From the sequence record PZ583738.1: 64,000 nucleotides of DNA. The stretch is one strand, 5' to 3'. The notes beneath the pieces are model-generated. The model worked only from the letters and a program-made list of their open reading frames with translations, was not told the origin of the DNA and ran no database searches. The translations under genes were made by a program, and so were the position numbers. This document shows, piece by piece, positions 3,772 through 37,672 of the stretch (positions are counted from its first letter, which is position 1; each line of letters starts with the position of its first letter). The stretch comes from a phage.

Positions 3772-3776
3772 AAATA

Positions 3777-3800
3777 AAGGGACCCGAAGGTCCCTTTTTA
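3777..3800. terminator. bidirectional terminator between rnlB and gene 24
   Basis: aagggacccgaaggtccctt hairpin flanked by A-run and T-run. Confidence 0.6.
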
Positions 3801-10847: not shown

Positions 10848-10895
10848 TAGAGTCTCCGAAGTTTGGGAAATGAGGCCGAAGCCTCATAATAACTT

Positions 10896-10903
10896 TATTT
10901 ATA
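10896..10903 (-). promoter_or_regulatory. late promoter TATAAATA upstream of gene 20
   Basis: Exact motif about 50 nt upstream of gene 20 start, next to a GC hairpin. Confidence 0.45.
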
Positions 10904-19908: not shown

Positions 19909-19931
19909 GAAAAAAGGGCCGAAGCCCTTTT
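19909..19931 (-). terminator. terminator between wac and gene 13
   Basis: gggccgaagccc hairpin with flanking A/T runs. Confidence 0.5.
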
Positions 19932-25599: not shown

Positions 25600-26468
25600 T
25601 ATACCGGTACTCCGATTGTTTGGGCGGAAATTACTTTAATAGCGAGCTTCATGGCAGTGGGTGAGCTTATAGCCGCCTGAATGATATCCTGGTTATCAAT
25701 TCTAAAATCGATGGCATATATCTCATCTTCTTCATTAGTTTGTCCACGTCTGATTACAGCGTATTCTGTGCTATATACCTTGCGGTCCTTAAGGTCGATG
25801 TAAAGTAATATTTCTGATGCTTTGTATTTAGTTTCGTCTGTTGAAATAGCTGTCAGCATCAATTTGATAGTTTTATAATCTGCGCGGAAAGCAAGTGGAA
25901 TATCACGAACAACCGAGCTCATATTGTATGTTTTGTCGAGCAATACAGATTGGTTGCCAAACATACTTTCAATTTTGTAGTCCCAGGTCCCTACGCCGTT
26001 AGCATCGTCAATACACCACAATGTAATTTTTGTATAAGGCTGAGTAAATTTCATTTTGTTCGTTGCAGCAGTCAGGAATGAATCCGTGCCTTGTAGTTCA
26101 ACTTCCAGAGGCAACGAGGTGGATAATGAACCATTGGAGTTAATAAAGATAACACCTTCGCCTGCTTTACCTTTTGCAATTCTTGCAGTGATAACACCTT
26201 CGGCAGTATTGACATCTCGCATAGAACCGAGAGCAACAGTCGAGTTCCATTCGATGATATTTGTGGCTTTTTGATAGTAGCCAGTCGCATGAAGTACCTG
26301 GGAGTTTTCTCCATTGTTCACAGAGTACAGACGCTGGTCGCCGAATGTATTATACAAACTGTCTAAATCCACGTTCAGTTTACGACCGCCTTCATATAGA
26401 ATATCACCGGTGCTGGCGTTACCAATCTCGCCGATGTCTACTAATAATTTTGGGGTTTGATTAATCAT
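25599..26468 (-). CDS. 9: baseplate wedge protein gp9 (long tail fibre socket)
   Basis: 289 aa in gene 9 position. Confidence 0.85.
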   Translation of the reverse strand: MINQTPKLLVDIGEIGNASTGDILYEGGRKLNVDLDSLYNTFGDQRLYSVNNGENSQVLHATGYYQKATNIIEWNSTVALGSMRDVNTAEGVITARIAKGKAGEGVIFINSNGSLSTSLPLEVELQGTDSFLTAATNKMKFTQPYTKITLWCIDDANGVGTWDYKIESMFGNQSVLLDKTYNMSSVVRDIPLAFRADYKTIKLMLTAISTDETKYKASEILLYIDLKDRKVYSTEYAVIRRGQTNEEDEIYAIDFRIDNQDIIQAAISSPTAMKLAIKVISAQTIGVPV

Positions 26469-26494
26469 AGGTAAGCCTCGTTATTGATATAGCT

Positions 26495-26502
26495 ATATTT
26501 AT
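26495..26502 (-). promoter_or_regulatory. late promoter TATAAATA upstream of gene 9
   Basis: Exact motif about 27 nt upstream of gene 9 start. Confidence 0.5.
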
Positions 26503-26506
26503 AGAA

Positions 26507-26531
26507 TAAAAAAGGGACCCGAAGGTCCCTT
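26507..26531 (-). terminator. terminator between gene 8 and gene 9
   Basis: aagggacccgaaggtccctt hairpin with A-run. Confidence 0.5.
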
Positions 26532-26532
26532 G

Positions 26533-27537
26533 TTAGAATTCAAAAATAATGTTAACTTCTTCTGTCTGGTCCATTGCACGAATAATCGGTGGGCGGTTTT
26601 CCATATAAATCATTTCCCCGGAATGACGGTCCAAATCAATTGCATCGTAGTATTCTTTGATTGCTTTGATATTTGGGTCATTAGGATGTACTTTAACTTC
26701 AAGTGGGTTGGATATAATCGACAGCTGGCGGAAGCCTTTGTTCCCTGGAAGACTGAACTCTGGGAAATAAATGGAATCCATAAATGCTTTAAATCTGATT
26801 GTATATCCTTTGATTCTGTATATTAAACCGAAATCATCTTGTTGCCAGCTGATATTGTCTTTGTAACCCCAACGTGATGGGTCTTCTTCAATTTCTTCAG
26901 GCCATGGAACAACAATATATTCGTTAGTACAACGGTTGATGGATACATCAGGTGGAATCTCATACAAATATTCCCAGAGATAACCATCGCCCATATCGAC
27001 TCGTCCTTCTGTATCACCAGTCCCAGCTGGAGCTCTCGTCGAGTTATATTCAGCAGTCCATTTACCACCGAGTTTTAAACACTCTTCTTTATTGATAATA
27101 GAATAAATGGAGCAAGTCCCAACATCAGGAACGTCTACACAACGATAAACCATCCAACCTTTACCAACATCAGTTCGGTTATACGGAGCACTGTTAGCTA
27201 CAACAATTTCCCCTACCTGGAAGTTAAGCGGATTGGGATATCTGATATCGCCCCAGTCTTTACGTGGGACAACACAATCAAGCATTGACTTATAAACTTT
27301 GACTGCACCCATCATATTTGTCCAAGTATCTTCAACACCTTGTGCTGTGTCAACCGGATAAGGAGGGGCGAACCCCGGGTCATTCTCATTCGAAGCCCAG
27401 GGTTCAGCACGACCGAACGTTACATACATCGTATTCTGGTCGGGCTCATTACCAATCATTTTATAAAAGTTATACATTTTTTCAGTTCGAAATTTCGAGG
27501 TAATTATCGAACGATAAACTACAGATGAATTATTCAT
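26533..27537 (-). CDS. 8: baseplate wedge protein gp8
   Basis: 334 aa, same as T4 gp8, in gene 8 position. Confidence 0.85.
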   Translation of the reverse strand: MNNSSVVYRSIITSKFRTEKMYNFYKMIGNEPDQNTMYVTFGRAEPWASNENDPGFAPPYPVDTAQGVEDTWTNMMGAVKVYKSMLDCVVPRKDWGDIRYPNPLNFQVGEIVVANSAPYNRTDVGKGWMVYRCVDVPDVGTCSIYSIINKEECLKLGGKWTAEYNSTRAPAGTGDTEGRVDMGDGYLWEYLYEIPPDVSINRCTNEYIVVPWPEEIEEDPSRWGYKDNISWQQDDFGLIYRIKGYTIRFKAFMDSIYFPEFSLPGNKGFRQLSIISNPLEVKVHPNDPNIKAIKEYYDAIDLDRHSGEMIYMENRPPIIRAMDQTEEVNIIFEF

Positions 27538-30500
27538 TTACCTTTACCTGTGATGGGTCTTTCGGGTCGCGTGGATTACCAATATCATCCTTAAGACGTT
27601 GATTAACCAAATTGCGCCAGTTCGCAAAAGTCACGGCAGACTGGTCAAACAATGGACTGTATTTTTTACGACGTTCAGACGGGAGAGTCCCATGAAAATC
27701 TGAAAAATCGTTTTCGGCATCATAATCTGCCGGTAATGGGAACGGTAAACCTGCGTTAGGAGCAATATTATATACTGCTTCGCCTGTAACAGCATTATGC
27801 TCAATGTTTCCATCGGCTCCAATAACTGCAATACGGTCACACCATTCTGACGGAATACCCGACGACCAACGATAGTTGTTCAGTTTATTGATAATGGTTT
27901 CTGTATGTTTTAATGACAGACCAGCATTAACAAACATTGTCAATAATGTAATTCCAACAAATCCAAATCCAACCGGATGAACAAATCGCAATACGTCATT
28001 ACGATAACGAGATGTCGGGAGACTTGATTTAATGGTCATTACATAGTAAGAACGATTTCGGTTGATATAATCGATGTTGTTGCTAAGCAATTCTTTCCCG
28101 CGAACGCCCTGAACAATCATGCCTCCAAAGGAAGTCCTTTCGGATTTAATTTCTTGCCCAACAATAAAGCGACCAAGCAAGTTATGAATCGTGATACGCC
28201 ATCTCAATTTACCCTGTTTGTAGTCACGCTCCATATAGGTAACGTTACTGCGGCCGGTTGGTGTGTAAATTGTTTGCCCAACAATATCTTCGCTGATATT
28301 ATCAGATTCGACAATTATGTCATACTCGGTTCCGTTCTTGGATTCAATATCGATTTCAACGTCTTCATTATATAACAATTTGAATAAAAACTTATAGGAT
28401 GCTTCAGTCCCCTTGGTTGCCCAAAAATCAGACTGTCTTGCTTCAAAGAAACGAACTACTTCGTCACGCTTGGTCTTTGACAAATATATGTTTCTTTTGT
28501 ACATTTCACTCCAAAGGTATTCCCATGCATCTTCCTCGCGTGGGTACTGGTTGCGAATCAAGTTCAAAAGGTTGTTATAATATGTGCCAGAACCATCACT
28601 GATAAACTGTAAATAATATTCACAGAATTTTTCGAAGTTGCTATCCTGGAGCAAATAACTATCCGGAACCATCTTTGTTAAAAGAGGACGCAAGTCCGGG
28701 TCTTTCTCTTGTTCATCATTATCCGGGGTCCATGGAATATCATGTTCCTGGTTCTGTAATTCTGCAGTGAACATAACTTCTTTCGGTTTCCAGATTAATC
28801 TAACTTCATCACGCATACGATAGTCGAATTCAAAATAACCAATAAGCTCACCAGTATTTTTATGTAACATAATACCCGAGGCATATTTTTTAAAGCCATT
28901 GAATTCGATGTTAGGAGAAGTAACTTTCACTTGACCTTTATTCCAGTATTCGTGCACAATACGTTCAGGGGATGAACCACCAAAGGTATCGATAATCTTT
29001 TGATACAGCATGTCATTATATACAACCAGAGCTCTGTCTGATGTGGTAATCCAACAACGAGTATCATCACGGCGAGACCAGTTAAAGAACGGTTCAGCGT
29101 AATATGACATACGTCCAGGTTTAAACTCTTCCCAACCTGAATCTTTATTCGACCTAAAACTCATCATCAAATAATGCTTGTCATGTATCCATTGTTCATC
29201 ATACACATATTTGACTGCTTCGTTAACTTCTTCAGGATACTTAGCAGGGAGTTCGGTATCTGGCTCAACGGAATAACGGAAGTTACTTGAACTGATAAAA
29301 AGTTCAATTCCATCAGTTGACATGCTTGTGTAACCATGTTCAATACGGCGACGTTCATCCTCTGTATTACCAAAAACTCGTGTCCATGTATCGGTATCGG
29401 TATTTAATTTATAAACGCCCTTTGATAATGAATCGACAACGTTTTCAGGCTTAGTCGGGTCTTGGCGTTCTTCCTTTACTTCACCCGTGATTAATGCAAA
29501 CACTTCACCGTCAATTGAATCCATCTTGTAACAAACAGCTTTTGGGTTGCCGCTTATTGTGCTATATCCAGCTTCAAATAATTTTTCACCGAATGTTGGA
29601 GAGTTAGGGTCATTATCAATTGGAGCATCAGAAGATTTAGCTTTGTATACACGGTCGCGGCCAGCAACGTAAATCATGGAATCGGTCGTAGTAATTGCTT
29701 CGGCAATTGTTGAGATATATGCCGGGAGTCTTGCGTATGTGCCAAATATTTCAATATCAAATCCGAGATTGAAATCCGAACCAATTTTTGCAAATGTTAT
29801 ATCCTGAGAACTGAATCGAACATCATCAGCAGACCATCTTATGTCACTTGATTTACGACCGTAAAAAATTCGGTCATATCCGAGTACATAAGTTGTCGTA
29901 TCTGATTGATAATAAATTGTGCGCGATACTGGGTTACCGATACGGTCATTAAACAATTTTACATAATACCAGTTCTGCCCTTTATCATTGGAGACTTTGA
30001 CAGTTGTCTGGAATCGTTCAAACAAATACAGTACGCCACCAAGTTCAGCAATCATTGTACGATTAACATCATTACACACCGGCTGAATACTACCCTGAAT
30101 TTCGTGATATTGGTCTTCTTTTAATACATAGTTTGAAATTGAAGACAAATGAGAATAAGCAGGAGTAAAGCTAAAATCTTCAGACATCAGCGATGCCATA
30201 ATTGCATCATTATTAAAGTTGATATAAGCCTGGTTATTGTTTGTGAATTTTTCTTCGATGAATTTATTTGTTAATGTAAACTCACGCATGTGTTCAAATG
30301 TGTATGCGTTAGTTGCAAAGGTTTCAAATTCTTCGGTATAAACCCAATCAGATTGTTCAAAACCCATTGCTGCAACAGCAACACGCATTTTGTAAAATGA
30401 TACTGGACGAATAAAATCTTGTTCGAACCATTCATTGTCTGGAGTATAACCTAAATTCCTCCATAACAGATTTTCTTCTGGAATAGCAACACCATTTTCT

Positions 30501-30628
30501 TTTGTCGGAGCAATCTCAACAAAATAATAAAAGTTGGCGCCAACATTATCCCATTTTATGCTAACCTGGTTAGCAGATAGTTTATCAATCCGTAAGCTGG
30601 TTACATAAGGGGCTTTAACACTCATCAT
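27530..30628 (-). CDS. 7: baseplate wedge protein gp7
   Basis: Track ORF of 1063 aa; start moved to ATGATG after RBS aaggaaa (MMSVKAPYVTSLRIDKLSANQ... matches recalled T4 gp7 N-terminus). Confidence 0.85.
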   Translation of the reverse strand: MMSVKAPYVTSLRIDKLSANQVSIKWDNVGANFYYFVEIAPTKENGVAIPEENLLWRNLGYTPDNEWFEQDFIRPVSFYKMRVAVAAMGFEQSDWVYTEEFETFATNAYTFEHMREFTLTNKFIEEKFTNNNQAYINFNNDAIMASLMSEDFSFTPAYSHLSSISNYVLKEDQYHEIQGSIQPVCNDVNRTMIAELGGVLYLFERFQTTVKVSNDKGQNWYYVKLFNDRIGNPVSRTIYYQSDTTTYVLGYDRIFYGRKSSDIRWSADDVRFSSQDITFAKIGSDFNLGFDIEIFGTYARLPAYISTIAEAITTTDSMIYVAGRDRVYKAKSSDAPIDNDPNSPTFGEKLFEAGYSTISGNPKAVCYKMDSIDGEVFALITGEVKEERQDPTKPENVVDSLSKGVYKLNTDTDTWTRVFGNTEDERRRIEHGYTSMSTDGIELFISSSNFRYSVEPDTELPAKYPEEVNEAVKYVYDEQWIHDKHYLMMSFRSNKDSGWEEFKPGRMSYYAEPFFNWSRRDDTRCWITTSDRALVVYNDMLYQKIIDTFGGSSPERIVHEYWNKGQVKVTSPNIEFNGFKKYASGIMLHKNTGELIGYFEFDYRMRDEVRLIWKPKEVMFTAELQNQEHDIPWTPDNDEQEKDPDLRPLLTKMVPDSYLLQDSNFEKFCEYYLQFISDGSGTYYNNLLNLIRNQYPREEDAWEYLWSEMYKRNIYLSKTKRDEVVRFFEARQSDFWATKGTEASYKFLFKLLYNEDVEIDIESKNGTEYDIIVESDNISEDIVGQTIYTPTGRSNVTYMERDYKQGKLRWRITIHNLLGRFIVGQEIKSERTSFGGMIVQGVRGKELLSNNIDYINRNRSYYVMTIKSSLPTSRYRNDVLRFVHPVGFGFVGITLLTMFVNAGLSLKHTETIINKLNNYRWSSGIPSEWCDRIAVIGADGNIEHNAVTGEAVYNIAPNAGLPFPLPADYDAENDFSDFHGTLPSERRKKYSPLFDQSAVTFANWRNLVNQRLKDDIGNPRDPKDPSQVKVNE

Positions 30629-30656
30629 GGTTTCCTTAAAAAGCCTCCGAAGAGGC

Positions 30657-32603
30657 TTATAGTGTAATTGGTTCAAGGTCAATCTTTGTATATTGCGGAC
30701 GAAGGTCATTCTCAAATACAATCAGTGAACCATCTTGCGTGTATATATTATCTTGGTTAGGACTTGCATAAAGTTCGATTGATTGAACTTCAAAGCGGTC
30801 GGAGGTCAATCCAATCGCAGCGATATCCCAAAAAATATAATCAGAGTAATAGTCAATTTCGCCAATTGTGTAATAAACTGTTTGGTCAGCCGGAGCTTCC
30901 ATTTTATTAAAGTCATCTTGCAGGTAAGGCTGGATGTTTACATTTTCAATAACATCACCCGGACGGAATGGACCAATTACCATTTTACCATCACCACGAG
31001 AATCTTTATCAGTTGCAACAATGCGAACGTTATAGGCTTCACCTGTGGTCGGAACAAATTCAAATTCACTTGATTCGACTGAACGGTTGCCATACTGGTT
31101 ATAGTATTTAATGCCGGATTCTGGAGTCTTAAAGAAGTTCAGGACTTCACGCACCATCGAAATGGTTGCAGACGAACCAAGAATACTATGGTCGGTATTA
31201 TCCACATATGTAAGCATTTTTGACTTAGCAAAACTTCTGTTAAAGATTTCAACTTCATCGATATAATAACGGTCAATCTGATTAATGATTTGTGCTTGCA
31301 ACCATTGTTCAGATTCTTGTAATTTGTTCAGCGCATAAGATACTTTGATATTATGTTTAAGGAACAAATAATCCGGAGAAATAACCGATGGTGTAATTGT
31401 TGATACGTTGAACTCGCTAAGGTAGTTCTGGATGTCCTCACGTTGCACTGCGGTGAGATACAAGCCCGATTTAGGCTTAACTGATATAAACGCATACCCA
31501 GGTTTATTTGCGTCTGTAAACGTCTGTACGGCTTGCACGATTGAGCCAAATCTTTCGGATACGAAGGTATCATAATCCGTCCCGGTGACAGCACGCATCT
31601 GTGCTTCACGTTTAACAACAGCCAGTTCGCGGATTCGTTCGATATCTTCCGGGTCACCACCACCATCGGCACCGACATAATCAGGGTCGTTGTTGTAGTT
31701 TTCGGTAATTTTATCCACTGTAATATAAGACAAAGTATCAGCATAACTAAAATCAACAGCGCCGTTTGCATCTGCCCCGGAAGTACGAAGATACTCAATA
31801 ACAATTGTTGAATCTTGCACAGGTTTAAGACCGCCAATATAGTTGGCTTCCATAACGCCACCGGCCACAGATTTGGTGGATTCACCTTCACCGAAGAAAA
31901 ATTCGGTATAGCCATCGATTGTTTCACGCATATAAAATATGGTGGAAGTCGAACCAGCATGAACCATTGATTTGTTCGTCCAGTCATCCCACTCAACACC
32001 ATTCACATATAACTTAACTTCTTTGCGGTCAATATCCGGGTCGCGGATAAGAATAGGTTGTTTCGGGTCATATAAAAGTTCCGTACGAATAATACGACCC
32101 TGTGCCAGAGATACAATCGGAAGGTATTGGTTGTTAATATCTTTAACCGCGATAACGTTTTCCGTGGTAACAAAAACATAAGGGTCAGCTGATGTATCAC
32201 GAGCATAAGCCAGGAATTTAGTTCCTCGTGGGATTTCAATATTCGATGGTTGCAGAGCATGAGAACATGTCAACATAACCGAAGTCTTTGCAGCCGAGCG
32301 AGAAGATGGAAGATAACCATTATCCTGTGCAGCCTGAACAACTGAAGACCTTAAGTTTGCAGTTCCGATAAATGATTCGTAAACCGCCGTGTTAGCAAAC
32401 TGCTGCATATACAATGTATTATATGCAAGCATGTCAATCAGGATATTCATTCGCGAACCTACGAAATCATAATCCTTAAATTCATCCTGGCTTGATAACC
32501 AGTCGATGATGTTCTTTTTAATTTCTTCAAACGTAGCTCCCACAAATACTTTTGGGATAGCGTTAACGGTTCTTGTTAATTGGTAATTCGTAGGAGTAGC
32601 CAT
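30657..32603 (-). CDS. 6: baseplate wedge protein gp6
   Basis: 648 aa in gene 6 position. Confidence 0.85.
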   Translation of the reverse strand: MATPTNYQLTRTVNAIPKVFVGATFEEIKKNIIDWLSSQDEFKDYDFVGSRMNILIDMLAYNTLYMQQFANTAVYESFIGTANLRSSVVQAAQDNGYLPSSRSAAKTSVMLTCSHALQPSNIEIPRGTKFLAYARDTSADPYVFVTTENVIAVKDINNQYLPIVSLAQGRIIRTELLYDPKQPILIRDPDIDRKEVKLYVNGVEWDDWTNKSMVHAGSTSTIFYMRETIDGYTEFFFGEGESTKSVAGGVMEANYIGGLKPVQDSTIVIEYLRTSGADANGAVDFSYADTLSYITVDKITENYNNDPDYVGADGGGDPEDIERIRELAVVKREAQMRAVTGTDYDTFVSERFGSIVQAVQTFTDANKPGYAFISVKPKSGLYLTAVQREDIQNYLSEFNVSTITPSVISPDYLFLKHNIKVSYALNKLQESEQWLQAQIINQIDRYYIDEVEIFNRSFAKSKMLTYVDNTDHSILGSSATISMVREVLNFFKTPESGIKYYNQYGNRSVESSEFEFVPTTGEAYNVRIVATDKDSRGDGKMVIGPFRPGDVIENVNIQPYLQDDFNKMEAPADQTVYYTIGEIDYYSDYIFWDIAAIGLTSDRFEVQSIELYASPNQDNIYTQDGSLIVFENDLRPQYTKIDLEPITL

Positions 32604-33280
32604 TATTCTGAATCCTGTTTAAATTGTTTTATCATTTTGTCATAAGCCGTATTTGGAAATCCGTTTTCAATGGCCAATCGTGTCATTTTTCTCCAACCTG
32701 GCTTATCATTTTCTTTCCATAATTTGAATAAAATATCATATGATTGCCAAATGGGGTGTTTTCTATTATTAAGTTTGCATAGGTCAATAACAGATTGAGG
32801 TCTTGGTCTTTTATATAAAGGATGCTCTTCTCCTCTAACAAAAACCCTCGGTTTTGGAGGTAGCTTAGGTTTTCTCCTTTTGGCCATAGCTTTTTCAAAA
32901 TTTTCAATATGTTCTTTACTTCTAGGTGGCTTTGGCCTACCCTTCATTTTGTCTGATGTTTGCTTTTTTGAAGATTCCTTATGCTTTCTTCCTCGCATAC
33001 TTCCTTTGCCACCCAAATCTATATTATAATATCTATCATCATAAATTATAGATTCGTCTACTAAAAATTCTTCGTAGTCGTAAGCTTCATCTTCAGTATC
33101 AAAAAATTTTATTATTTTTGTCTCAAACGAATCCTTTCCATATTTTTTATAAGCCTTTTTGATAAGCTCCCCTGTGCCGTAATATCCATCAAACATATCG
33201 TCAGTAGAATGTTTGCCTATATACTTTTTACCATTTTCTAGGTTTGTAGTTACATATACAAAATTAAATTCTTTGTTCAT
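32603..33280 (-). CDS. GIY-YIG homing endonuclease (Seg-like) inserted between genes 5.4 and 6
   Basis: 225 aa; N-terminal [19 protein letters not shown] (GIY...YIG), then highly basic K/R/P-rich DNA-binding-like tail. Confidence 0.8.
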
Positions 33281-33570
33281 TTTATGAACACCTTCCCTGA
33301 AGCTTGTGCGACAGTATCACCACATGAAATCGGGTCTGCCATTTGAACAGCTTTCTTACCGGTAACAAATACTTTTGATGTGCGCGGTTGTGTTACTCCA
33401 CCGTGAGTTTCATATGGTTTTTTAATTTCGGTATGCTCGGTAATAGGGTCTCCGGCAACTAACACCGGAATTCCCCCGGTGAATACTTTACCTTGAGTTG
33501 CATTAATTACAGTCGGTGGCCATGCTTCGTGGCCTGCTGTAACACATTGATTGAAACTTAATCCAGCCAT
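33277..33570 (-). CDS. 5.4: PAAR-repeat spike tip protein gp5.4
   Basis: 97 aa (same as T4 gp5.4), Gly/Val-rich PAAR-like sequence, immediately after gene 5 cluster. Confidence 0.8.
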
Positions 33571-34151
33571 TAATCCCTCGTGTATACGTATGAACGCAGT
33601 TTATCTGCCCATCTTGACCAGTTACCAACGATAGTTTTTGTGTAAACTTTTGTCATTGTCTTTCTTACTGGAGCAGGAGGTGGGTCGGTCTCATTACCTG
33701 CACGGCTATTACTGCCACCAGAGCTCCCTGTGTCTCCGCCAGAGCTCTCTTCTTGAAAGTCATAGGTTAGGGTTACCGTGTATGAAAAGACCTTCTGGAG
33801 GCTCGCTGGGGCCCTCCAGAGATACAATTGAGTACTCTTATCGGTAGGAAGGTCTTCCCATGAACCGGCAGTTTTGAATTCATCGTTAAGTCGGTATTTA
33901 AGCGCATCATCTGCAAATCCGAACACGGATTCATAAACACCATAAAGATGATTACCCTCAACATTAACGCCAGGGGTGGCCTCATATTCAGTTATATTTA
34001 TTTCGACTAATGTTTCGTTTGTTTCTAATTGAGCTGTAAACGTAACATCGATTGAGGCTCCTTCCATGGAGTCTCCTAGGTCAGTGCTCATTGGAAGTAT
34101 ATTAGCCAATGTCAATCCTCGAACCATCAATAGTATATTGACCAGATGCAA
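33570..34151 (-). CDS. hypothetical protein, positional equivalent of T4 gene 5.1
   Basis: 193 aa track ORF overlapping gene 5 end; true start may be an internal ATG (e.g. MSTDLG at about 34091). Confidence 0.5.
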
Positions 34152-35844
34152 TAGAACTCATTGTTGACATTGTTTCGGACCAATTGCCAGCCACGGTCAT
34201 ATCAACGTTTCCATTAACGGACCATTTGACATTACCATTTACCGTATAATCATGGTTACCTTCGACAAGAGTTTTTGCGTCACCTTTAACAGTTATTTCA
34301 GCATTACCTTCGACCAGAATACTTACATTACCTTTGACGATAATTGTACCGTCACCTTCGATAGTTTTGGTTTCATTCCCACGAATATGAATGCTTTCGC
34401 TTCCATCGGTCTGGCGACGAACATTAGCCATATTATAATAGGTTTCATCACCGCCAACGTTGACTTTATTATTTCCGCCCACGTAAGTGCTAGAATCACC
34501 CTGGGTCATATAATAACCGTCAGCTACTGTCTTCGAAGTCTTACGACCATCTGGTGCAACTTCCTCGTAGGAACCGGTCGGGTGAATCAGTCGATAACGT
34601 TCTTGTCCAGGGGTGTTATCGAATTCCTGAATATGACCGCCTTCAGTTTGCATTGTCTGCACGTAAGGATATTCGCCCTTGTAACTTGATTCTGGCTCTT
34701 TAAACAGAATCCTTGTATCTTCTGGGGTCCACGGGTCAGCTGGGTCAGAATTTGCAGGGGCTGCAAAGGTTTGAATCATCCTATATGAACGCCCTTTAAA
34801 TGACCTTTCTTTAGGAGCCATAATACCGTATGATTCCATATTACCGGTAAGGATAATCATTGATACCCTTGATGCACGCCCTTTAGTTTGGTTAAACCAT
34901 ACTGAATTACGAGCTTCCTCAAATGCCTTTTTATAATCACCTACTAACATTGCGCTAAGCATTCCACGGAATTTAGCCAATCCGCCTAATCCCATTTGGA
35001 AAGCCATGTTTTCAAGAGCCATTTGTCTCGAACGGTTTTCTTTATTGTAAACTGGACCCACGACACTATGCCGGCCTATATCGTTTTGTACTTTTTTAAG
35101 GTCTTCTTGGAATAATTTAGAGGCCTCGTCCATTGATATTGCGCCAGGGTTACCTTTAACTTCACGGCCTATTTGATTAGATAATATTTTGTTTATCTGA
35201 TTCATATCTCTAATAGGTTGTGGTGCAATTAAGTGTCCTATACCTATAGTAGGATAACCTTCGGTGTCCCAATATACTTTCAAACGAAGACCTTCATCAC
35301 GGTGAAGCATATTTTCAATTGTGAAATTAGGATTATCATCTGGCTTAACTTGACTCAAATCAAGGCCATCGGGGTTAATACCAAGGTCAAGGTTTGCATC
35401 CTGAATTACGTTCGAAGTTGCATCGTAACCGACCTCACCGCCTCGGTTGAGCGCAGCAGCATCATTACCTACATAAAGTGGATATTGTCCTGTGGGGTCA
35501 GAGAAGCCTTCGTTGGGATTTGCTTTTTGTCTTGAGGCTGAACCATACGTACCAATAACAAGCCCGTTGAGTTTCCACTTGTCTAAAAAGTGACCATATA
35601 CCTGAGTCCCTGGCACCATACCGGTCATTGCAGTTTGAATACCAGAAACTGATGCAGATGATGTTGGCATCAGTACAGACATCCATGGCAGGTCTTCAGT
35701 TCTGATACCTTTTACAGGCCCTTGTGATTTCTCATATGGATGCATACCCCATACACGGACACGGACTCGGCCTTGTTGAAGTGGGTCCATTCGGTCTTCG
35801 ACAACACCGACGAACCAACTTACATTATCTGACATATTAATCAT
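34102..35844 (-). CDS. 5: baseplate hub / cell-puncturing device with lysozyme domain gp5
   Basis: 580 aa; OB-fold N-terminus, central T4-lysozyme-like domain (KVYWDTEGYPTIGIGHL), C-terminal beta-helix repeats (VxGNxxxxV). Confidence 0.92.
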   Translation of the reverse strand: MINMSDNVSWFVGVVEDRMDPLQQGRVRVRVWGMHPYEKSQGPVKGIRTEDLPWMSVLMPTSSASVSGIQTAMTGMVPGTQVYGHFLDKWKLNGLVIGTYGSASRQKANPNEGFSDPTGQYPLYVGNDAAALNRGGEVGYDATSNVIQDANLDLGINPDGLDLSQVKPDDNPNFTIENMLHRDEGLRLKVYWDTEGYPTIGIGHLIAPQPIRDMNQINKILSNQIGREVKGNPGAISMDEASKLFQEDLKKVQNDIGRHSVVGPVYNKENRSRQMALENMAFQMGLGGLAKFRGMLSAMLVGDYKKAFEEARNSVWFNQTKGRASRVSMIILTGNMESYGIMAPKERSFKGRSYRMIQTFAAPANSDPADPWTPEDTRILFKEPESSYKGEYPYVQTMQTEGGHIQEFDNTPGQERYRLIHPTGSYEEVAPDGRKTSKTVADGYYMTQGDSSTYVGGNNKVNVGGDETYYNMANVRRQTDGSESIHIRGNETKTIEGDGTIIVKGNVSILVEGNAEITVKGDAKTLVEGNHDYTVNGNVKWSVNGNVDMTVAGNWSETMSTMSSIASGQYTIDGSRIDIG

Positions 35845-36443
35845 AATGACTTCTCCATCTCACGGATTAATGCCGAAATAAATGATTCGATATCATTAGG
35901 GTCGATTATCTTTATTTCTCGTTTATATTCATTTTTACGAATAGCATCTTCATAGATATCTACTGCAGCTAATGGACCTTCATATTGTGGGTACAATTTA
36001 TTCTTATCACCTTTATCATACCAGGTGTACGGATTATCAGGATAAGAAACAAGATTCCAGAATTTTTCACCATCTTCATTTACATGATAAAGAACCTGAT
36101 TACCACCTATATTCGAATAGCGTTGAATTGATGCCTGATACGATGATTCTTGTGAACATATCCAACCATAATACGGGTCATAGATATCATTAAGCATAAG
36201 GAGAACCCAATAGAGTTGAGTATTACCATAGAGCTGATATGCAAGTTCTTCAGGTCTTGGAGCTCCAGCGATGTAATATGTTTTCGGTGTATAATTAACC
36301 GCAACCTTATCAAAATAGGCACGATAGTTTCTGAAGATGTCAGTCATCGGGATGCTTAAGACGTCTTCTTTCGTTAATGATGCCGAGTTTTTTCTGATTG
36401 TTTTAGCATCATAATCAATTGGGTTAAAAAATGAAAAAAGCAT
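35841..36443 (-). CDS. 53: baseplate wedge protein gp53
   Basis: Start set at internal ATG (MLFSFFNPIDYDAK...) matching recalled T4 gp53 N-terminus; track ORF begins at an upstream non-ATG codon. Confidence 0.8.
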   Translation of the reverse strand: MLFSFFNPIDYDAKTIRKNSASLTKEDVLSIPMTDIFRNYRAYFDKVAVNYTPKTYYIAGAPRPEELAYQLYGNTQLYWVLLMLNDIYDPYYGWICSQESSYQASIQRYSNIGGNQVLYHVNEDGEKFWNLVSYPDNPYTWYDKGDKNKLYPQYEGPLAAVDIYEDAIRKNEYKREIKIIDPNDIESFISALIREMEKSL

Positions 36444-36455
36444 AAAGCCTCCATT

Positions 36456-36463
36456 TATAAATA
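36456..36463 (+). promoter_or_regulatory. late promoter TATAAATA upstream of gene 4 (divergent 53/4 region)
   Basis: Exact motif about 30 nt upstream of gene 4 ATG. Confidence 0.5.
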
Positions 36464-36491
36464 AGTATATCAATATTTATTAGGAGGCTAT

Positions 36492-36944
36492 ATGGCATAC
36501 TCCGGGAAGTGGCAGCCAAAAAACGTTGCCAAGTACAAAGGAGACTGGAAGAAAATCACATACAGGTCAAATTGGGAAAAATTTGTATTTAATTGGTTAG
36601 ATAATCATCCAGATGTGATACAATGGGGCTCTGAGACCGTAATTATTCCATATTTCAGTAATGCGGATGGTAAAAAACGCAGATATTACATGGATATGTG
36701 GGTGAAATTCTCAAATGGACAACAGTTTTTCTTTGAGGTCAAACCCAAAAAGGAAACAAGGCCGCCAGCAAAACCAGTCAATACGACCGCTGCAAGTAAG
36801 AAGAGGTTTATGAACGAAATGTACACTTGGGCCGTTAACAAGGATAAGTGGAAAGCAGCGCAGGCCGTAGCCGATAAAATGGGCATCCAGTTTAGATTGA
36901 TTACTGAAGATGCGCTTAGAAAAATGGGATATAAGGGTTTATAA
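36492..36944 (+). CDS. 4: head completion protein gp4
   Basis: 150 aa, same as T4 gp4, divergent from gene 53. Confidence 0.85.
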   Translation: MAYSGKWQPKNVAKYKGDWKKITYRSNWEKFVFNWLDNHPDVIQWGSETVIIPYFSNADGKKRRYYMDMWVKFSNGQQFFFEVKPKKETRPPAKPVNTTAASKKRFMNEMYTWAVNKDKWKAAQAVADKMGIQFRLITEDALRKMGYKGL

Positions 36945-37672
36945 TGTACGATTGTTCAGATTTTAACATCACAAATGGCGAGATAGTGGGACAAGGCGAT
37001 TTTAATAAATCAAAAACTTTGATATTTGTAAAGTGCTTTATATGTGAAGAAACATGCAAATACAAAGCAACTGTTTTAAAGCATAAGTTAAAAACAAAAA
37101 GTTGGTGTTCTAATTGTAATTTAAAACGTTCTTATGGTGAAAGCAAATTAATATCTGAATTAGATGCAATCACAAGAATAAATTCCGTGAATCCATTGTA
37201 TAGTTTTGATAAATGGGATACCACATATTCAACTTTTACAAAATCAAAAGCCTATATAAAGTGTTCTACATGTTCAACCAGTTGGATTACAAATCTAAAC
37301 AACTTTACAACAAAAAACAAAGGATGTCCAAACTGTTGTCACAAAGGATTTAACGCAAAGAAACCTGCTATTGTTTATGTTAATAAAATAGAATATCCGG
37401 GCGGAACTGCTTTAAAGTATGGTATAACTTCCAATCATGATTTTAGATTGTGGCAGCAAAATCATTTTTCCAAATGCATTAGTTCCAAATTATATTATCG
37501 AGAATTTGAACTGGGTGCACAAGCCAAAATGTTAGAATCCGCAATATCTGTATTATATATAAAAGACAGAGGTTATTTGAATAAAGATATTATGGTCGAT
37601 GGCTATACAGAAACCTTACCATACTATTTAAAAAATGATTTGATTAATTTTATAGAAGGATGGAAAGGATGA
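36944..37672 (+). CDS. Cys-rich homing-endonuclease-like protein inserted between genes 4 and 2
   Basis: 242 aa; four CxxC pairs (zinc-ribbon-like) plus GIY-YIG-like [23 protein letters not shown]...R...H in the C-terminal half; not present at this junction in T4. Confidence 0.45.

Follow-up and report, generated by a model that had tools for sequence, protein, structure and literature searches.

Between genes 6 and 7 of this T4-like phage lies a short, conserved, UUCG-capped RNA hairpin that, on balance, probably acts as a leaky terminator and/or a protector of mRNA 3' ends, favouring the gene 6 over the gene 7 message. The window (the whole stretch of 64,000 nucleotides analysed here, PZ583738.1) is ∼99.6% identical to the Gaprivervirus phage P479, and the hairpin is an element of an ordinary kind at a spot where T4 has none. 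The junction comprises the following features:

30657..32603, minus strand: gene 6, encoding the baseplate wedge subunit gp6, 648 aa (open reading frame list, Pfam, and annotation of phage P479 and others)
30641..30658, minus strand: extended 7-bp helix, gaining two pairs between the final AA of the gene 6 stop and the first two U past the stem
30643..30656, minus strand: core hairpin GCCUC-UUCG-GAGGC (sequence and folding)
30638..30642, minus strand: run of five U after the stem (sequence)
30633..30637, minus strand: Shine-Dalgarno-like AAGGA of gene 7 (sequence)
27530..30628, minus strand: gene 7, encoding the baseplate wedge initiator gp7 (Pfam gp7 domain families and annotation in near-identical phages)

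Read on the minus strand, the junction runs from the gene 6 TAA (30659-30657) through GCCTC-TTCG-GAGGC (30656-30643), TTTTT, AAGGA and AACC to ATGATG; the first-pass annotation, which had placed a hairpin between the gene 6 stop and the gene 7 ribosome-binding site, was right in both wording and coordinates. The two arms (5', 30656-30652; 3', 30647-30643, the latter containing GGAGG) enclose a C:G-closed UUCG tetraloop (30651-30648), and four of the five core pairs are G-C. Folding bears out the stability that had been claimed for the structure, with a dG of -7.5 kcal/mol for the five pairs and UUCG loop and of -10.0 for the extended helix, whose additional A-U pairs are unchanged in all seven haplotypes. 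The hairpin starts 1 nt past the translated stop codon of gene 6, a gene whose product matches five Pfam gp6 domain families with E-values of 1e-35 to 1e-45. Gene 7 opens with tandem ATGs at 30628 and 30625, the second of which aligns with the T4 and SP18 start; AAGGA lies 4 nt from the first and 7 nt from the second, and AAGGA, AAGGAG or GAGGAG occupies the equivalent site in all members of the clade. Within the gene 53-to-8 block this is the sole non-overlapping junction, and a seg-like gene adjoins gene 6 upstream. An Rfam cmscan of 26000-37000, with E-values up to 1, gave no match at the hairpin, and an antisense promoter-like site across it (30636-30663, plus strand) is a 9-of-12 match at chance level (62 such sites found, 54 expected).

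The first-pass annotation had also proposed comparisons with the T4 junction and with relatives. The former could go only so far, as genes 6 and 7 of T4 overlap (ATGA) and offer neither an intergenic region nor a hairpin to compare; most related genera are alike in this. A 27-28 nt spacer with a hairpin is instead common to Gaprivervirus and Dhakavirus, and here the comparison was informative: the stem is kept between lineages in which ∼70% of the third codon positions nearby have changed, with only 2 of its 10 columns variable, vs 26 of 38 among third codon positions and spacer (Fisher p = 0.010). The only stem changes fall in the outer pair, which goes from G-C to G.U (the JS98 type) to A-U, so that pairing is preserved in all seven haplotypes, while the loop reads UUCG, UCCG (also UNCG) or UUAG. 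RNAalifold predicted the hairpin as the only consensus structure among eight relatives. Covariation on the stem was not significant, one pair being variable and 206 of 500 shuffles equally good, and because of this statistical weakness the conservation could reflect the GGAGG sequence instead of pairing. Taken as a whole, the substitution pattern indicates that the hairpin is under purifying selection in these relatives. It would date back to an ancestor common to Gaprivervirus and Dhakavirus, in which ∼28 nt of spacer would have taken the place of the ATGA overlap and gene 7 would have gained its own ribosome-binding site.

Hairpins of different sequence occupy the 6-7 junction in Pseudomonas phage PspYZU05, in the Aeromonas 44RR2.8t/31 and 25 types and in the RB16/RB43/KP15 group. 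Such hairpins, unrelated in sequence to that of the window, were present at 21 of the 76 surveyed IMG/VR loci, which fall in three or more places on the gp7 tree. PspYZU05, 44RR2.8t and the Aeromonas 25 type have a compact layout of stop, hairpin, 2-5 U, Shine-Dalgarno and AUG, whereas the RB16/RB43/KP15 group has strong terminators followed by a late-promoter-like motif, and the KP15 record has a putative terminator annotated at the junction. The hairpins of KP15 (Slopekvirus) and RB16/RB43 (Pseudotevenvirus) resemble that of the window in lying just past the gene 6 stop and ahead of a Shine-Dalgarno and the gene 7 start, and the KP15 loop is likewise UUCG; they differ in their 78-80 nt spacers, 8-10 bp stems of unrelated sequence, 6-7 U, and the late promoter TATAAATA or an nnTAAATA motif before gene 7.

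These cassettes lend some credit to the idea that the hairpin is a harmless leftover, either a decayed terminator-promoter cassette or the trace of a lost inserted gene, in a spacer that now holds the gene 7 ribosome-binding site. Shuffling of mobile promoter/stem-loop cassettes and of homing endonuclease genes is known from T4-like genomes (PMC4122927; PMC2988022), the seg-like gene sits just upstream of gene 6, and most relatives need no hairpin at 6-7. A neutral remnant nevertheless sits poorly with a stem that is far better conserved than its surroundings, that changes only in ways that preserve pairing, and that has counterparts at 6-7 in three or more separate regions of the gp7 tree, and we regard this explanation as unlikely. 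An identity with the mobile PeSL cassettes, defined as a stem-loop joined to an early (sigma-70) promoter that is found in hyperplastic regions and flanks indels (PMC4122927), was rejected: the hairpin lies in the conserved late core between baseplate genes, and the nearby promoter-like match is at chance level.

The hairpin is no chance feature of the window. Perfect hairpins of at least 7 bp with a 4-nt loop number 11, against 5.8 expected from shuffles, and six of them, the 6-7 hairpin included, are intergenic, with a loop that reads TTCG in the orientation of the neighbouring genes; CTTCGG itself occurs 42 times, against 19 expected. Four members serve as points of reference:

26512..26531, minus strand: CUUCGG hairpin with U6 after gene 8, followed by the late promoter TATAAATA (26503-26496); terminator score d +38.7
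19912..19931, minus strand: CUUCGG hairpin with a U run after wac, followed by TATAAATA (19907-19900); d +15.6
10870..10887, minus strand: CUUCGG hairpin between genes 19 and 20, 8 nt downstream of a late promoter (10903-10896)
3776..3797, minus strand: 9-bp CUUCGG hairpin after gene 24, identical in sequence to a hairpin at 2057-2078 on the plus strand

The first two sit at the ends of transcription units, as TATAAATA directly follows each, and the hairpin after gene 8 is a unit-end terminator that we used for comparison; the gene 19-20 hairpin would occupy the 5' end of a late transcript. The 6-7 hairpin belongs to the C(UUCG)G class known in T4 since 1988, a described class of hairpins in T4 mRNAs among whose roles is mRNA stabilisation (PMC8948821 and PMC4371310, after Tuerk et al. 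1988, PNAS 85:1364). It shares with that class the C:G-closed UUCG loop, a short perfect stem (5 pairs, or 7 with the AA/UU extension, within the 2-8 or more of the class), an intergenic position on the transcribed strand and a T4-type genome with many copies. It differs in standing at 6-7, where T4 has no spacer, in being specific there to Gaprivervirus and Dhakavirus, and in lying in the interior of a late operon with no promoter after it. Its 14-mer is present once in the window; the 14-mer, and the 21-mer that includes TTTTT, are also found between the genes of hundreds of unrelated phages, mostly with a T-rich tail behind them. These outside matches are generic hairpins, and no source cassette emerged from them.

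The orientation of these loops also speaks to a role at the DNA level, in which the near-perfect palindrome would be a site of recombination or cleavage, such as a cruciform or the target of a homing endonuclease; a GIY-YIG endonuclease gene lies ∼2 kb upstream. The UUCG/UCCG loop, however, is specific to the mRNA strand, and the five other members of the family likewise follow their flanking genes; such strand specificity is not explained at the DNA level; moreover, the G.U outer pair of the JS98 type works in RNA only. We give this reading the least credence of all those considered, as very nearly negligible.

How far the hairpin is able to end transcription can be judged from its shape, its U tract and what follows it. 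It shares with intrinsic terminators a GC-rich stem, a loop of 4 nt and a run of U that follows the stem at once; unlike them, it has only five GC-rich pairs and five U followed by AAGG, it adjoins a translated stop codon, and the essential gene downstream of it has no promoter. Its U tract is UUUUUAAG, with 5 U in 8, against a reference of ∼7-9 nt directly past the stem, and the scan of the window for terminators omitted it. Two of its five U can pair with the A residues of the stop codon. On a d'Aubenton-Carafa-type score, which was computed with modern energy parameters and is a rough guide only, the 6-7 hairpin reaches +1.8, the window's own unit-end hairpins reach +15 to +39, and sister lineages with the same stem and 2-3 U fall to -19 to -39. 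The run of five U is confined to the lineage of the window and VR26, the other Gaprivervirus and Dhakavirus relatives keeping the stem with 2-3 U (tail score 3.69 in the window vs 2.5 in relatives). A run of only 3 U is also seen in Dhakavirus after the hairpins of the gene 8-9 unit end, which softens the argument from a short U run.

No TATAAATA occurs on the minus strand between 36450 and 26503, and matches with one mismatch downstream of the hairpin lie only deep in gene 7 or gene 8, too far to serve gene 7. A TATAAG over the stop codon was considered as a late promoter and rejected; it is conserved, but shows three mismatches and is dictated by the codons it overlaps. Expression of the essential wedge proteins of genes 7 and 8 thus depends on read-through, and the hairpin cannot terminate efficiently. 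If the end of a transcription unit is recognized by downstream genes having a promoter of their own, the 6-7 hairpin is not such an end. An efficient intrinsic terminator that closes a unit after gene 6 is accordingly highly improbable, for all that the hairpin-plus-U-run shape, the frequency of the identical hairpin with a T run in the intergenic DNA of other phages, and the strong terminators at 6-7 in the KP15 and RB16 types would suggest one: beyond the missing promoter, the score is borderline with two U possibly sequestered by the stop codon, and in Escherichia coli ribosomes repress terminators that lie just past a translated stop codon (PMC4824070), here 1 nt away. The first-pass annotation had seen the hairpin as resembling an intrinsic terminator inside an operon; the hairpin is real and lies within an operon, but with its short stem, its score and the lack of a late promoter the terminator label is weak, and the 6-7 hairpin is a weak, leaky terminator at best. 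The accompanying suggestion of a role at the RNA level, by attenuation, stability or processing, is reasonable for a hairpin under purifying selection inside an operon.

The pattern across lineages points the same way. Where a late-promoter-like TAAATA motif follows a 6-7 hairpin, the hairpin scores d +39 to +43; where none follows, scores run from -39 to +9, as expected if the hairpin marks a transcript boundary and is leaky when gene 7 has no promoter. A boundary role is further supported by the KP15, RB16 and RB43 types, in which a strong terminator and a late-promoter-like motif stand together at 6-7. A literature search found no transcriptome or 3'-end study for T4 late terminators, Gaprivervirus or Dhakavirus.

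We therefore favour, as probably correct, a leaky terminator and/or 3'-end-protecting hairpin. It would be transcribed within a late polycistronic mRNA that carries genes 53, 5, 5.1, 5.4, the seg-like gene, 6, 7 and 8. A minority of RNA polymerases would stop at the short U run, and most would still read through, allowing expression of the essential genes 7 and 8; where read-through transcripts were later cut downstream, the stable hairpin would block 3'-to-5' exonucleases. As a result, the message of genes 53 to 6 would outlast or outnumber that of genes 7 and 8. Partial termination, exonuclease protection and an effect on the gp6:gp7 ratio are what we infer from the arrangement of the junction. 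Hairpins within operons that give unequal stability to segments of mRNA are familiar from REP/malEF-type elements. Stem-loops within the cip-cel operon similarly set differential stability of mRNA segments (PMC10311766). The principle proposed here is the same, a hairpin between cistrons that shields the upstream segment from 3' exonucleases; the sequences are unrelated, and function has been demonstrated in those systems whereas at 6-7 it is inferred.

Each baseplate contains 12 copies of gp6, 6 of gp7 and 12 of gp8 (PMC3004832). The excess of gp6 over gp7 is in favour of this reading, but gp8 lies downstream of the hairpin together with gp7, so a plain drop in transcription at the hairpin does not account for the proportions of all three proteins. 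T4 and most relatives manage without any hairpin at 6-7, which speaks against a need for one, and within the Gaprivervirus/Dhakavirus clade the U run is not conserved, an observation that counts against the favoured reading.

The layout of the junction would also suit a role in translation, in which the hairpin and a new ribosome-binding site replace ATGA coupling. The hairpin could keep the gene 7 ribosome-binding site clear of upstream structure, or a ribosome terminating at the gene 6 stop could melt it and expose GGAGG for re-initiation on gene 7. All short-spacer lineages place the start of the hairpin 1 nt past the stop and its end 5 nt short of the Shine-Dalgarno, the compact arrangement recurs in PspYZU05, 44RR2.8t and the Aeromonas 25 type, the Gaprivervirus/Dhakavirus clade has lost the T4-type internal GGAG at the 3' end of gene 6, and the invariant 3' arm holds a perfect Shine-Dalgarno-like GGAGG. 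The actual Shine-Dalgarno, though, is not sequestered by the hairpin. In silico, the unpaired probability of the ribosome-binding site with the native vs a disrupted 5' arm was 0.31/0.51, 0.52/0.56, 0.36/0.42 and 0.28/0.41 in four lineages, so that the native hairpin makes the gene 7 site no more accessible and the idea of an insulator found no support. The minimum free energy fold of the window does pair the gene 7 Shine-Dalgarno with CCUUGAA inside gene 6, but this long-range helix was rejected, being missing from the consensus fold, not conserved in relatives and of a z-score of only -1.08. The long-spacer lineages, with a clear terminator and a promoter-like motif at 6-7, argue instead for a role at the transcript level. 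We consider a translational role doubtful, if less so than a neutral leftover. The bypass element of T4 gene 60, in which a stop and a tetraloop hairpin with matching take-off and landing codons join two parts of an open reading frame (PMC3014915), was also tried and set aside: the take-off codon would be CUA, none is present in the spacer as a landing codon, and gene 7 has its own Shine-Dalgarno and AUG, 31 nt from the first base of the stop and in a different frame.

If the leaky or protective hairpin does tune the gene 6:gene 7 message, it would be a small natural example of how the stoichiometry of a machine is adjusted within one operon. A broader and more speculative reading is that the 6/7 boundary is a recurrent, tunable expression valve, set interchangeably in different lineages as an ATGA overlap, as a strong terminator with a fresh late promoter, or as a promoter-less leaky hairpin. 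The shared problem would be a demand for gp6 that is twice that for the very large gp7; the length of the U run would set the strength of the leaky hairpin, and the lineage of the window would be strengthening it from 3 U to 5 U. If the hairpin does tune the two messages, the junction would also offer a natural set of variants (2, 3 or 5 U; UUCG, UCCG or UUAG; with or without a downstream promoter) of tetraloop hairpins abutting a stop codon, by which leaky-terminator or decay-barrier behaviour could be gauged. For annotation, terminator-like hairpins within T4-like late operons should not be counted as operon ends.

A comparable arrangement exists in T4 itself, at another junction. The hairpin between wac and 13 (GGGGCC-GCAA-GGCCCC) shares with the 6-7 hairpin the compact series of stop, tetraloop hairpin with no real U tract, Shine-Dalgarno and late-gene start; its loop is of the GNRA rather than the UNCG type.

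Along the minus-strand late operon that spans genes 53 to 8, neighbouring genes overlap by 1-50 nt at every junction except that between genes 6 and 7, where a 28-nt spacer carries a hairpin. The first-pass annotation had described this hairpin and its position correctly, as judged from the sequence, the Pfam-supported flanking ORFs and near-identical phages. Over 701 bases across the junction, identity is 99.6% with Escherichia phage P479 and 98-99% with other VR26-like phages; related records are classified as Gaprivervirus.

Features of the gene 6-gene 7 region, read from the sequence, with Pfam matches for genes 6 and 7
32603-33280, minus strand: SegE-like/GIY-YIG endonuclease-domain ORF (225 aa) located between genes 5.4 and 6, sharing 1-4 nt with each
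30657-32603, minus strand: gene 6 ORF, matching five Pfam gp6 domain families
30659-30657, minus strand: gene 6 stop codon TAA, preceded by ACA CTA
30656-30643, minus strand: hairpin GCCTC TTCG GAGGC
30642-30638, minus strand: U run TTTTT
30637-30633, minus strand: gene 7 Shine-Dalgarno-like sequence (SD) AAGGA, then AACC
30628-30623, minus strand: gene 7 tandem start codons ATG ATG
27530-30628, minus strand: gene 7 ORF, matching three Pfam gp7 domain families

The second gene 7 ATG (30625, minus strand) lies 7 nt from the SD and aligns with the gp7 start codon of T4, SP18 and JS98, so translation may in fact begin one codon after the start of the longest ORF. The 225-aa ORF is probably a free-standing homing endonuclease; T4 has nothing at this spot, its segC lying between 5.1 and 5.3.

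Folding bears out the stability claimed for the hairpin, with an energy of -7.5 kcal/mol for the core and -10.0 kcal/mol if two A-U pairs are added that join the final AA of the stop codon to the beginning of the U run. Perfect hairpins of at least 7 pairs with a 4-nt loop number 11 in the window (5.8 in shuffles), and six of these are intergenic with a loop that reads TTCG in the direction of the neighbouring genes, which is far beyond chance since one specific loop is expected in about 1/128 of such hairpins. CTTCGG is likewise over-represented (42 occurrences versus 19 expected), and the 6-7 hairpin is therefore one member of a genome-wide C(UUCG)G family. The exact 14-mer is a generic hairpin present in many unrelated phages, and this kind of element is long known, having been first described in T4 mRNAs in 1988 (as cited in PMC8948821, PMC4371310). 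Apparently undescribed, within the literature searched, are its occurrence between genes 6 and 7 in Gaprivervirus and Dhakavirus and the pattern of alternative arrangements that T4-like phages have there.

T4 has no hairpin at this junction, its gene 7 start codon lying within the last 4 nt of gene 6 (ATGA). The same overlap, or a 1-nt form of it (Gualtarvirus and KVP40 type), was found in sampled Roskildevirus, Karamvirus, Mosigvirus, Tequatrovirus RB9, Jiaodavirus, Acinetobacter phage Ac42, Krischvirus, Gualtarvirus and a KVP40-type phage. A 105-nt junction query matched 82 phage records, the sampled ones all Gaprivervirus or Dhakavirus; a gp7 homologue occurs in about 1475 records. Within this clade we distinguished seven junction haplotypes. 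All share the inner four stem pairs (CCUC/GAGG), whereas the outer position holds a G-C, G.U or A-U pair and the loop reads UUCG, UCCG or UUAG. The window/VR26 type has a U run of 5 and the others one of 2-3, and the remaining spacer varies in length and sequence. Variable columns amount to 2/10 in the stem, 2/4 in the loop, 11/17 in the spacer and 15/21 at nearby third codon positions (stem versus spacer plus third positions, Fisher p = 0.010), so that the stem is indeed kept in relatives. Covariation is weak (one pair changes; 206 of 500 shuffles were as good), and the case for selection thus rests on conservation rather than compensatory change. The hairpin may be a neutral relic, left by a cassette or by an insertion since lost, but this fits poorly with the conservation and with the recurrence of hairpins at the junction. 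A DNA-level role for the palindrome would leave both the G.U pair and the strand specificity of the UNCG loops unexplained.

In T4-type junctions GGAG lies inside the 3' end of gene 6, 11 nt before the gene 7 ATG; the clade equivalent is GAAC or GGAA, and its spacer instead carries AAGGA, AAGGAG or GAGGAG as the gene 7 SD. This compact layout fits a translational role, in which the hairpin would either insulate the ribosome-binding site or let the terminating ribosome gate re-initiation, but an accessibility calculation in four lineages gave it no support, and it leaves unexplained the terminator-plus-promoter forms found at the same junction. In one Dhakavirus-like contig (L022/L173; IMGVR_UViG_2974741249) the entire junction is missing, around position 600 of L022, and the 3' end of gene 6 runs directly into gp7 at about residue 46, through either an assembly artefact or a deletion that would inactivate two essential genes.

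A profile-based IMG/VR survey gave 76 usable T4-like 6-7 loci: 42 with the ATGA overlap, 10 with a 1-nt overlap, three with a gap of 1-5 nt without a hairpin, and 21 with a hairpin spacer. The last comprise Gaprivervirus/Dhakavirus (8), RB16/RB43/KP15 types (8), Aeromonas 25 type (3), Aeromonas phage 44RR2.8t/31 (1) and Pseudomonas phage PspYZU05 (1), and are scattered over at least three distinct positions on a rough neighbour-joining tree built from the gp7 N-terminus. KP15 (Slopekvirus) has, from the gene 6 stop, a 10-bp UUCG-loop hairpin, a long U-rich tail, TATAAATA, an SD and gene 7, and its record annotates a putative terminator here; RB16 shares the layout with GCTAAATA replacing TATAAATA. 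The junction of Aeromonas phage 50AhydR13PP (TAA GGGTC-TAAC-GGCCC TTT GGAG ATTTT ATG) has the same compact architecture as that of the window, with another stem. A d'Aubenton-Carafa-type terminator score (d) separates two groups cleanly, long spacers with a downstream TAAATA motif (+39 to +43) and short promoter-less spacers (-39 to +9), the window hairpin scoring +1.8 and the window's own unit-end hairpins +15 to +39. In RB16/RB43/KP15-type spacers (comparison loci L154, L155, L196, L201-L206, L212, L215) a promoter-like motif sits at the same position, about 10 nt after the terminator (TATAAATA in KP15, GCTAAATA in RB16 and RB43 types, TCTAAATA in L205 and L206), which suggests that the late promoter of these genera has its core relaxed to nnTAAATA.

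Hairpins of unrelated sequence recur immediately 3' of the gene 6 stop, which argues for the 6-7 junction as a favoured place for an RNA-level boundary, and the tracking of hairpin strength with the downstream promoter-like motif points the same way. Such a boundary would have to leak where gene 7 has no promoter of its own. Exact copies of the late-promoter motif TATAAATA number 20 in the window against 5 expected, a strong enrichment, and lie directly 3' of CUUCGG hairpins downstream of gene 8 and of wac; a motif search found none on the minus strand at 36450-26503, so that transcription of genes 7 and 8 has to run through the hairpin. Because these genes lack such a promoter, an efficient terminator is excluded. 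As an intrinsic terminator the hairpin would be weak: termination is probably kept low by the short stem, the short U run and a position 1 nt after a translated stop codon. In E. coli the ribosome almost completely represses a terminator a few base pairs after a gene (PMC4824070).

With somewhat better than even confidence, we rank first a weak terminator and/or 3'-exonuclease barrier, which would raise the amount or lifetime of the gene 53-to-6 message relative to that of genes 7-8. Protection is plausible because T4 mRNAs are subject to degradation by host RNase E and 3' exonucleases for the whole of infection (PMC3014915). Both gp7 and gp8 are wedge proteins built into every baseplate, at 6 and 12 copies, with 12 of gp6 (PMC3004832). 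This is a weak point of the reading: gp7 and gp8 are both encoded 3' of the hairpin, and no simple step in transcript level would match the copy numbers of all three proteins.

The junction between genes 8 and 9 keeps a hairpin in all phages examined, with its sequence replaced: the stem carries a UUCG loop in the window and SP18 and a GCAA loop with only 3 U in JS98 (L152) and IME08 (L153), and T4 has yet another stem. Between wac and 13, T4 (L001, 9594-9624) has a GGGGCC-GCAA-GGCCCC hairpin with no U tract and the SD and ATG directly after. The hairpin sequence AAAGGGACCTTCGGGTCCCTTT occurs 3' of three different genes on both strands, in two full copies and one 20-nt copy (2057-2078, plus; 3776-3797, minus; 26512-26531, minus), suggesting that terminator hairpins are copied, or strongly convergent, within this genome. 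Between genes 19 and 20 (10870-10903, minus strand), the late promoter TATAAATA is followed after 8 nt by a 7-bp CUUCGG hairpin, which would therefore occupy the extreme 5' end of a late transcript rather than a 3' end and is possibly a 5' stabiliser.
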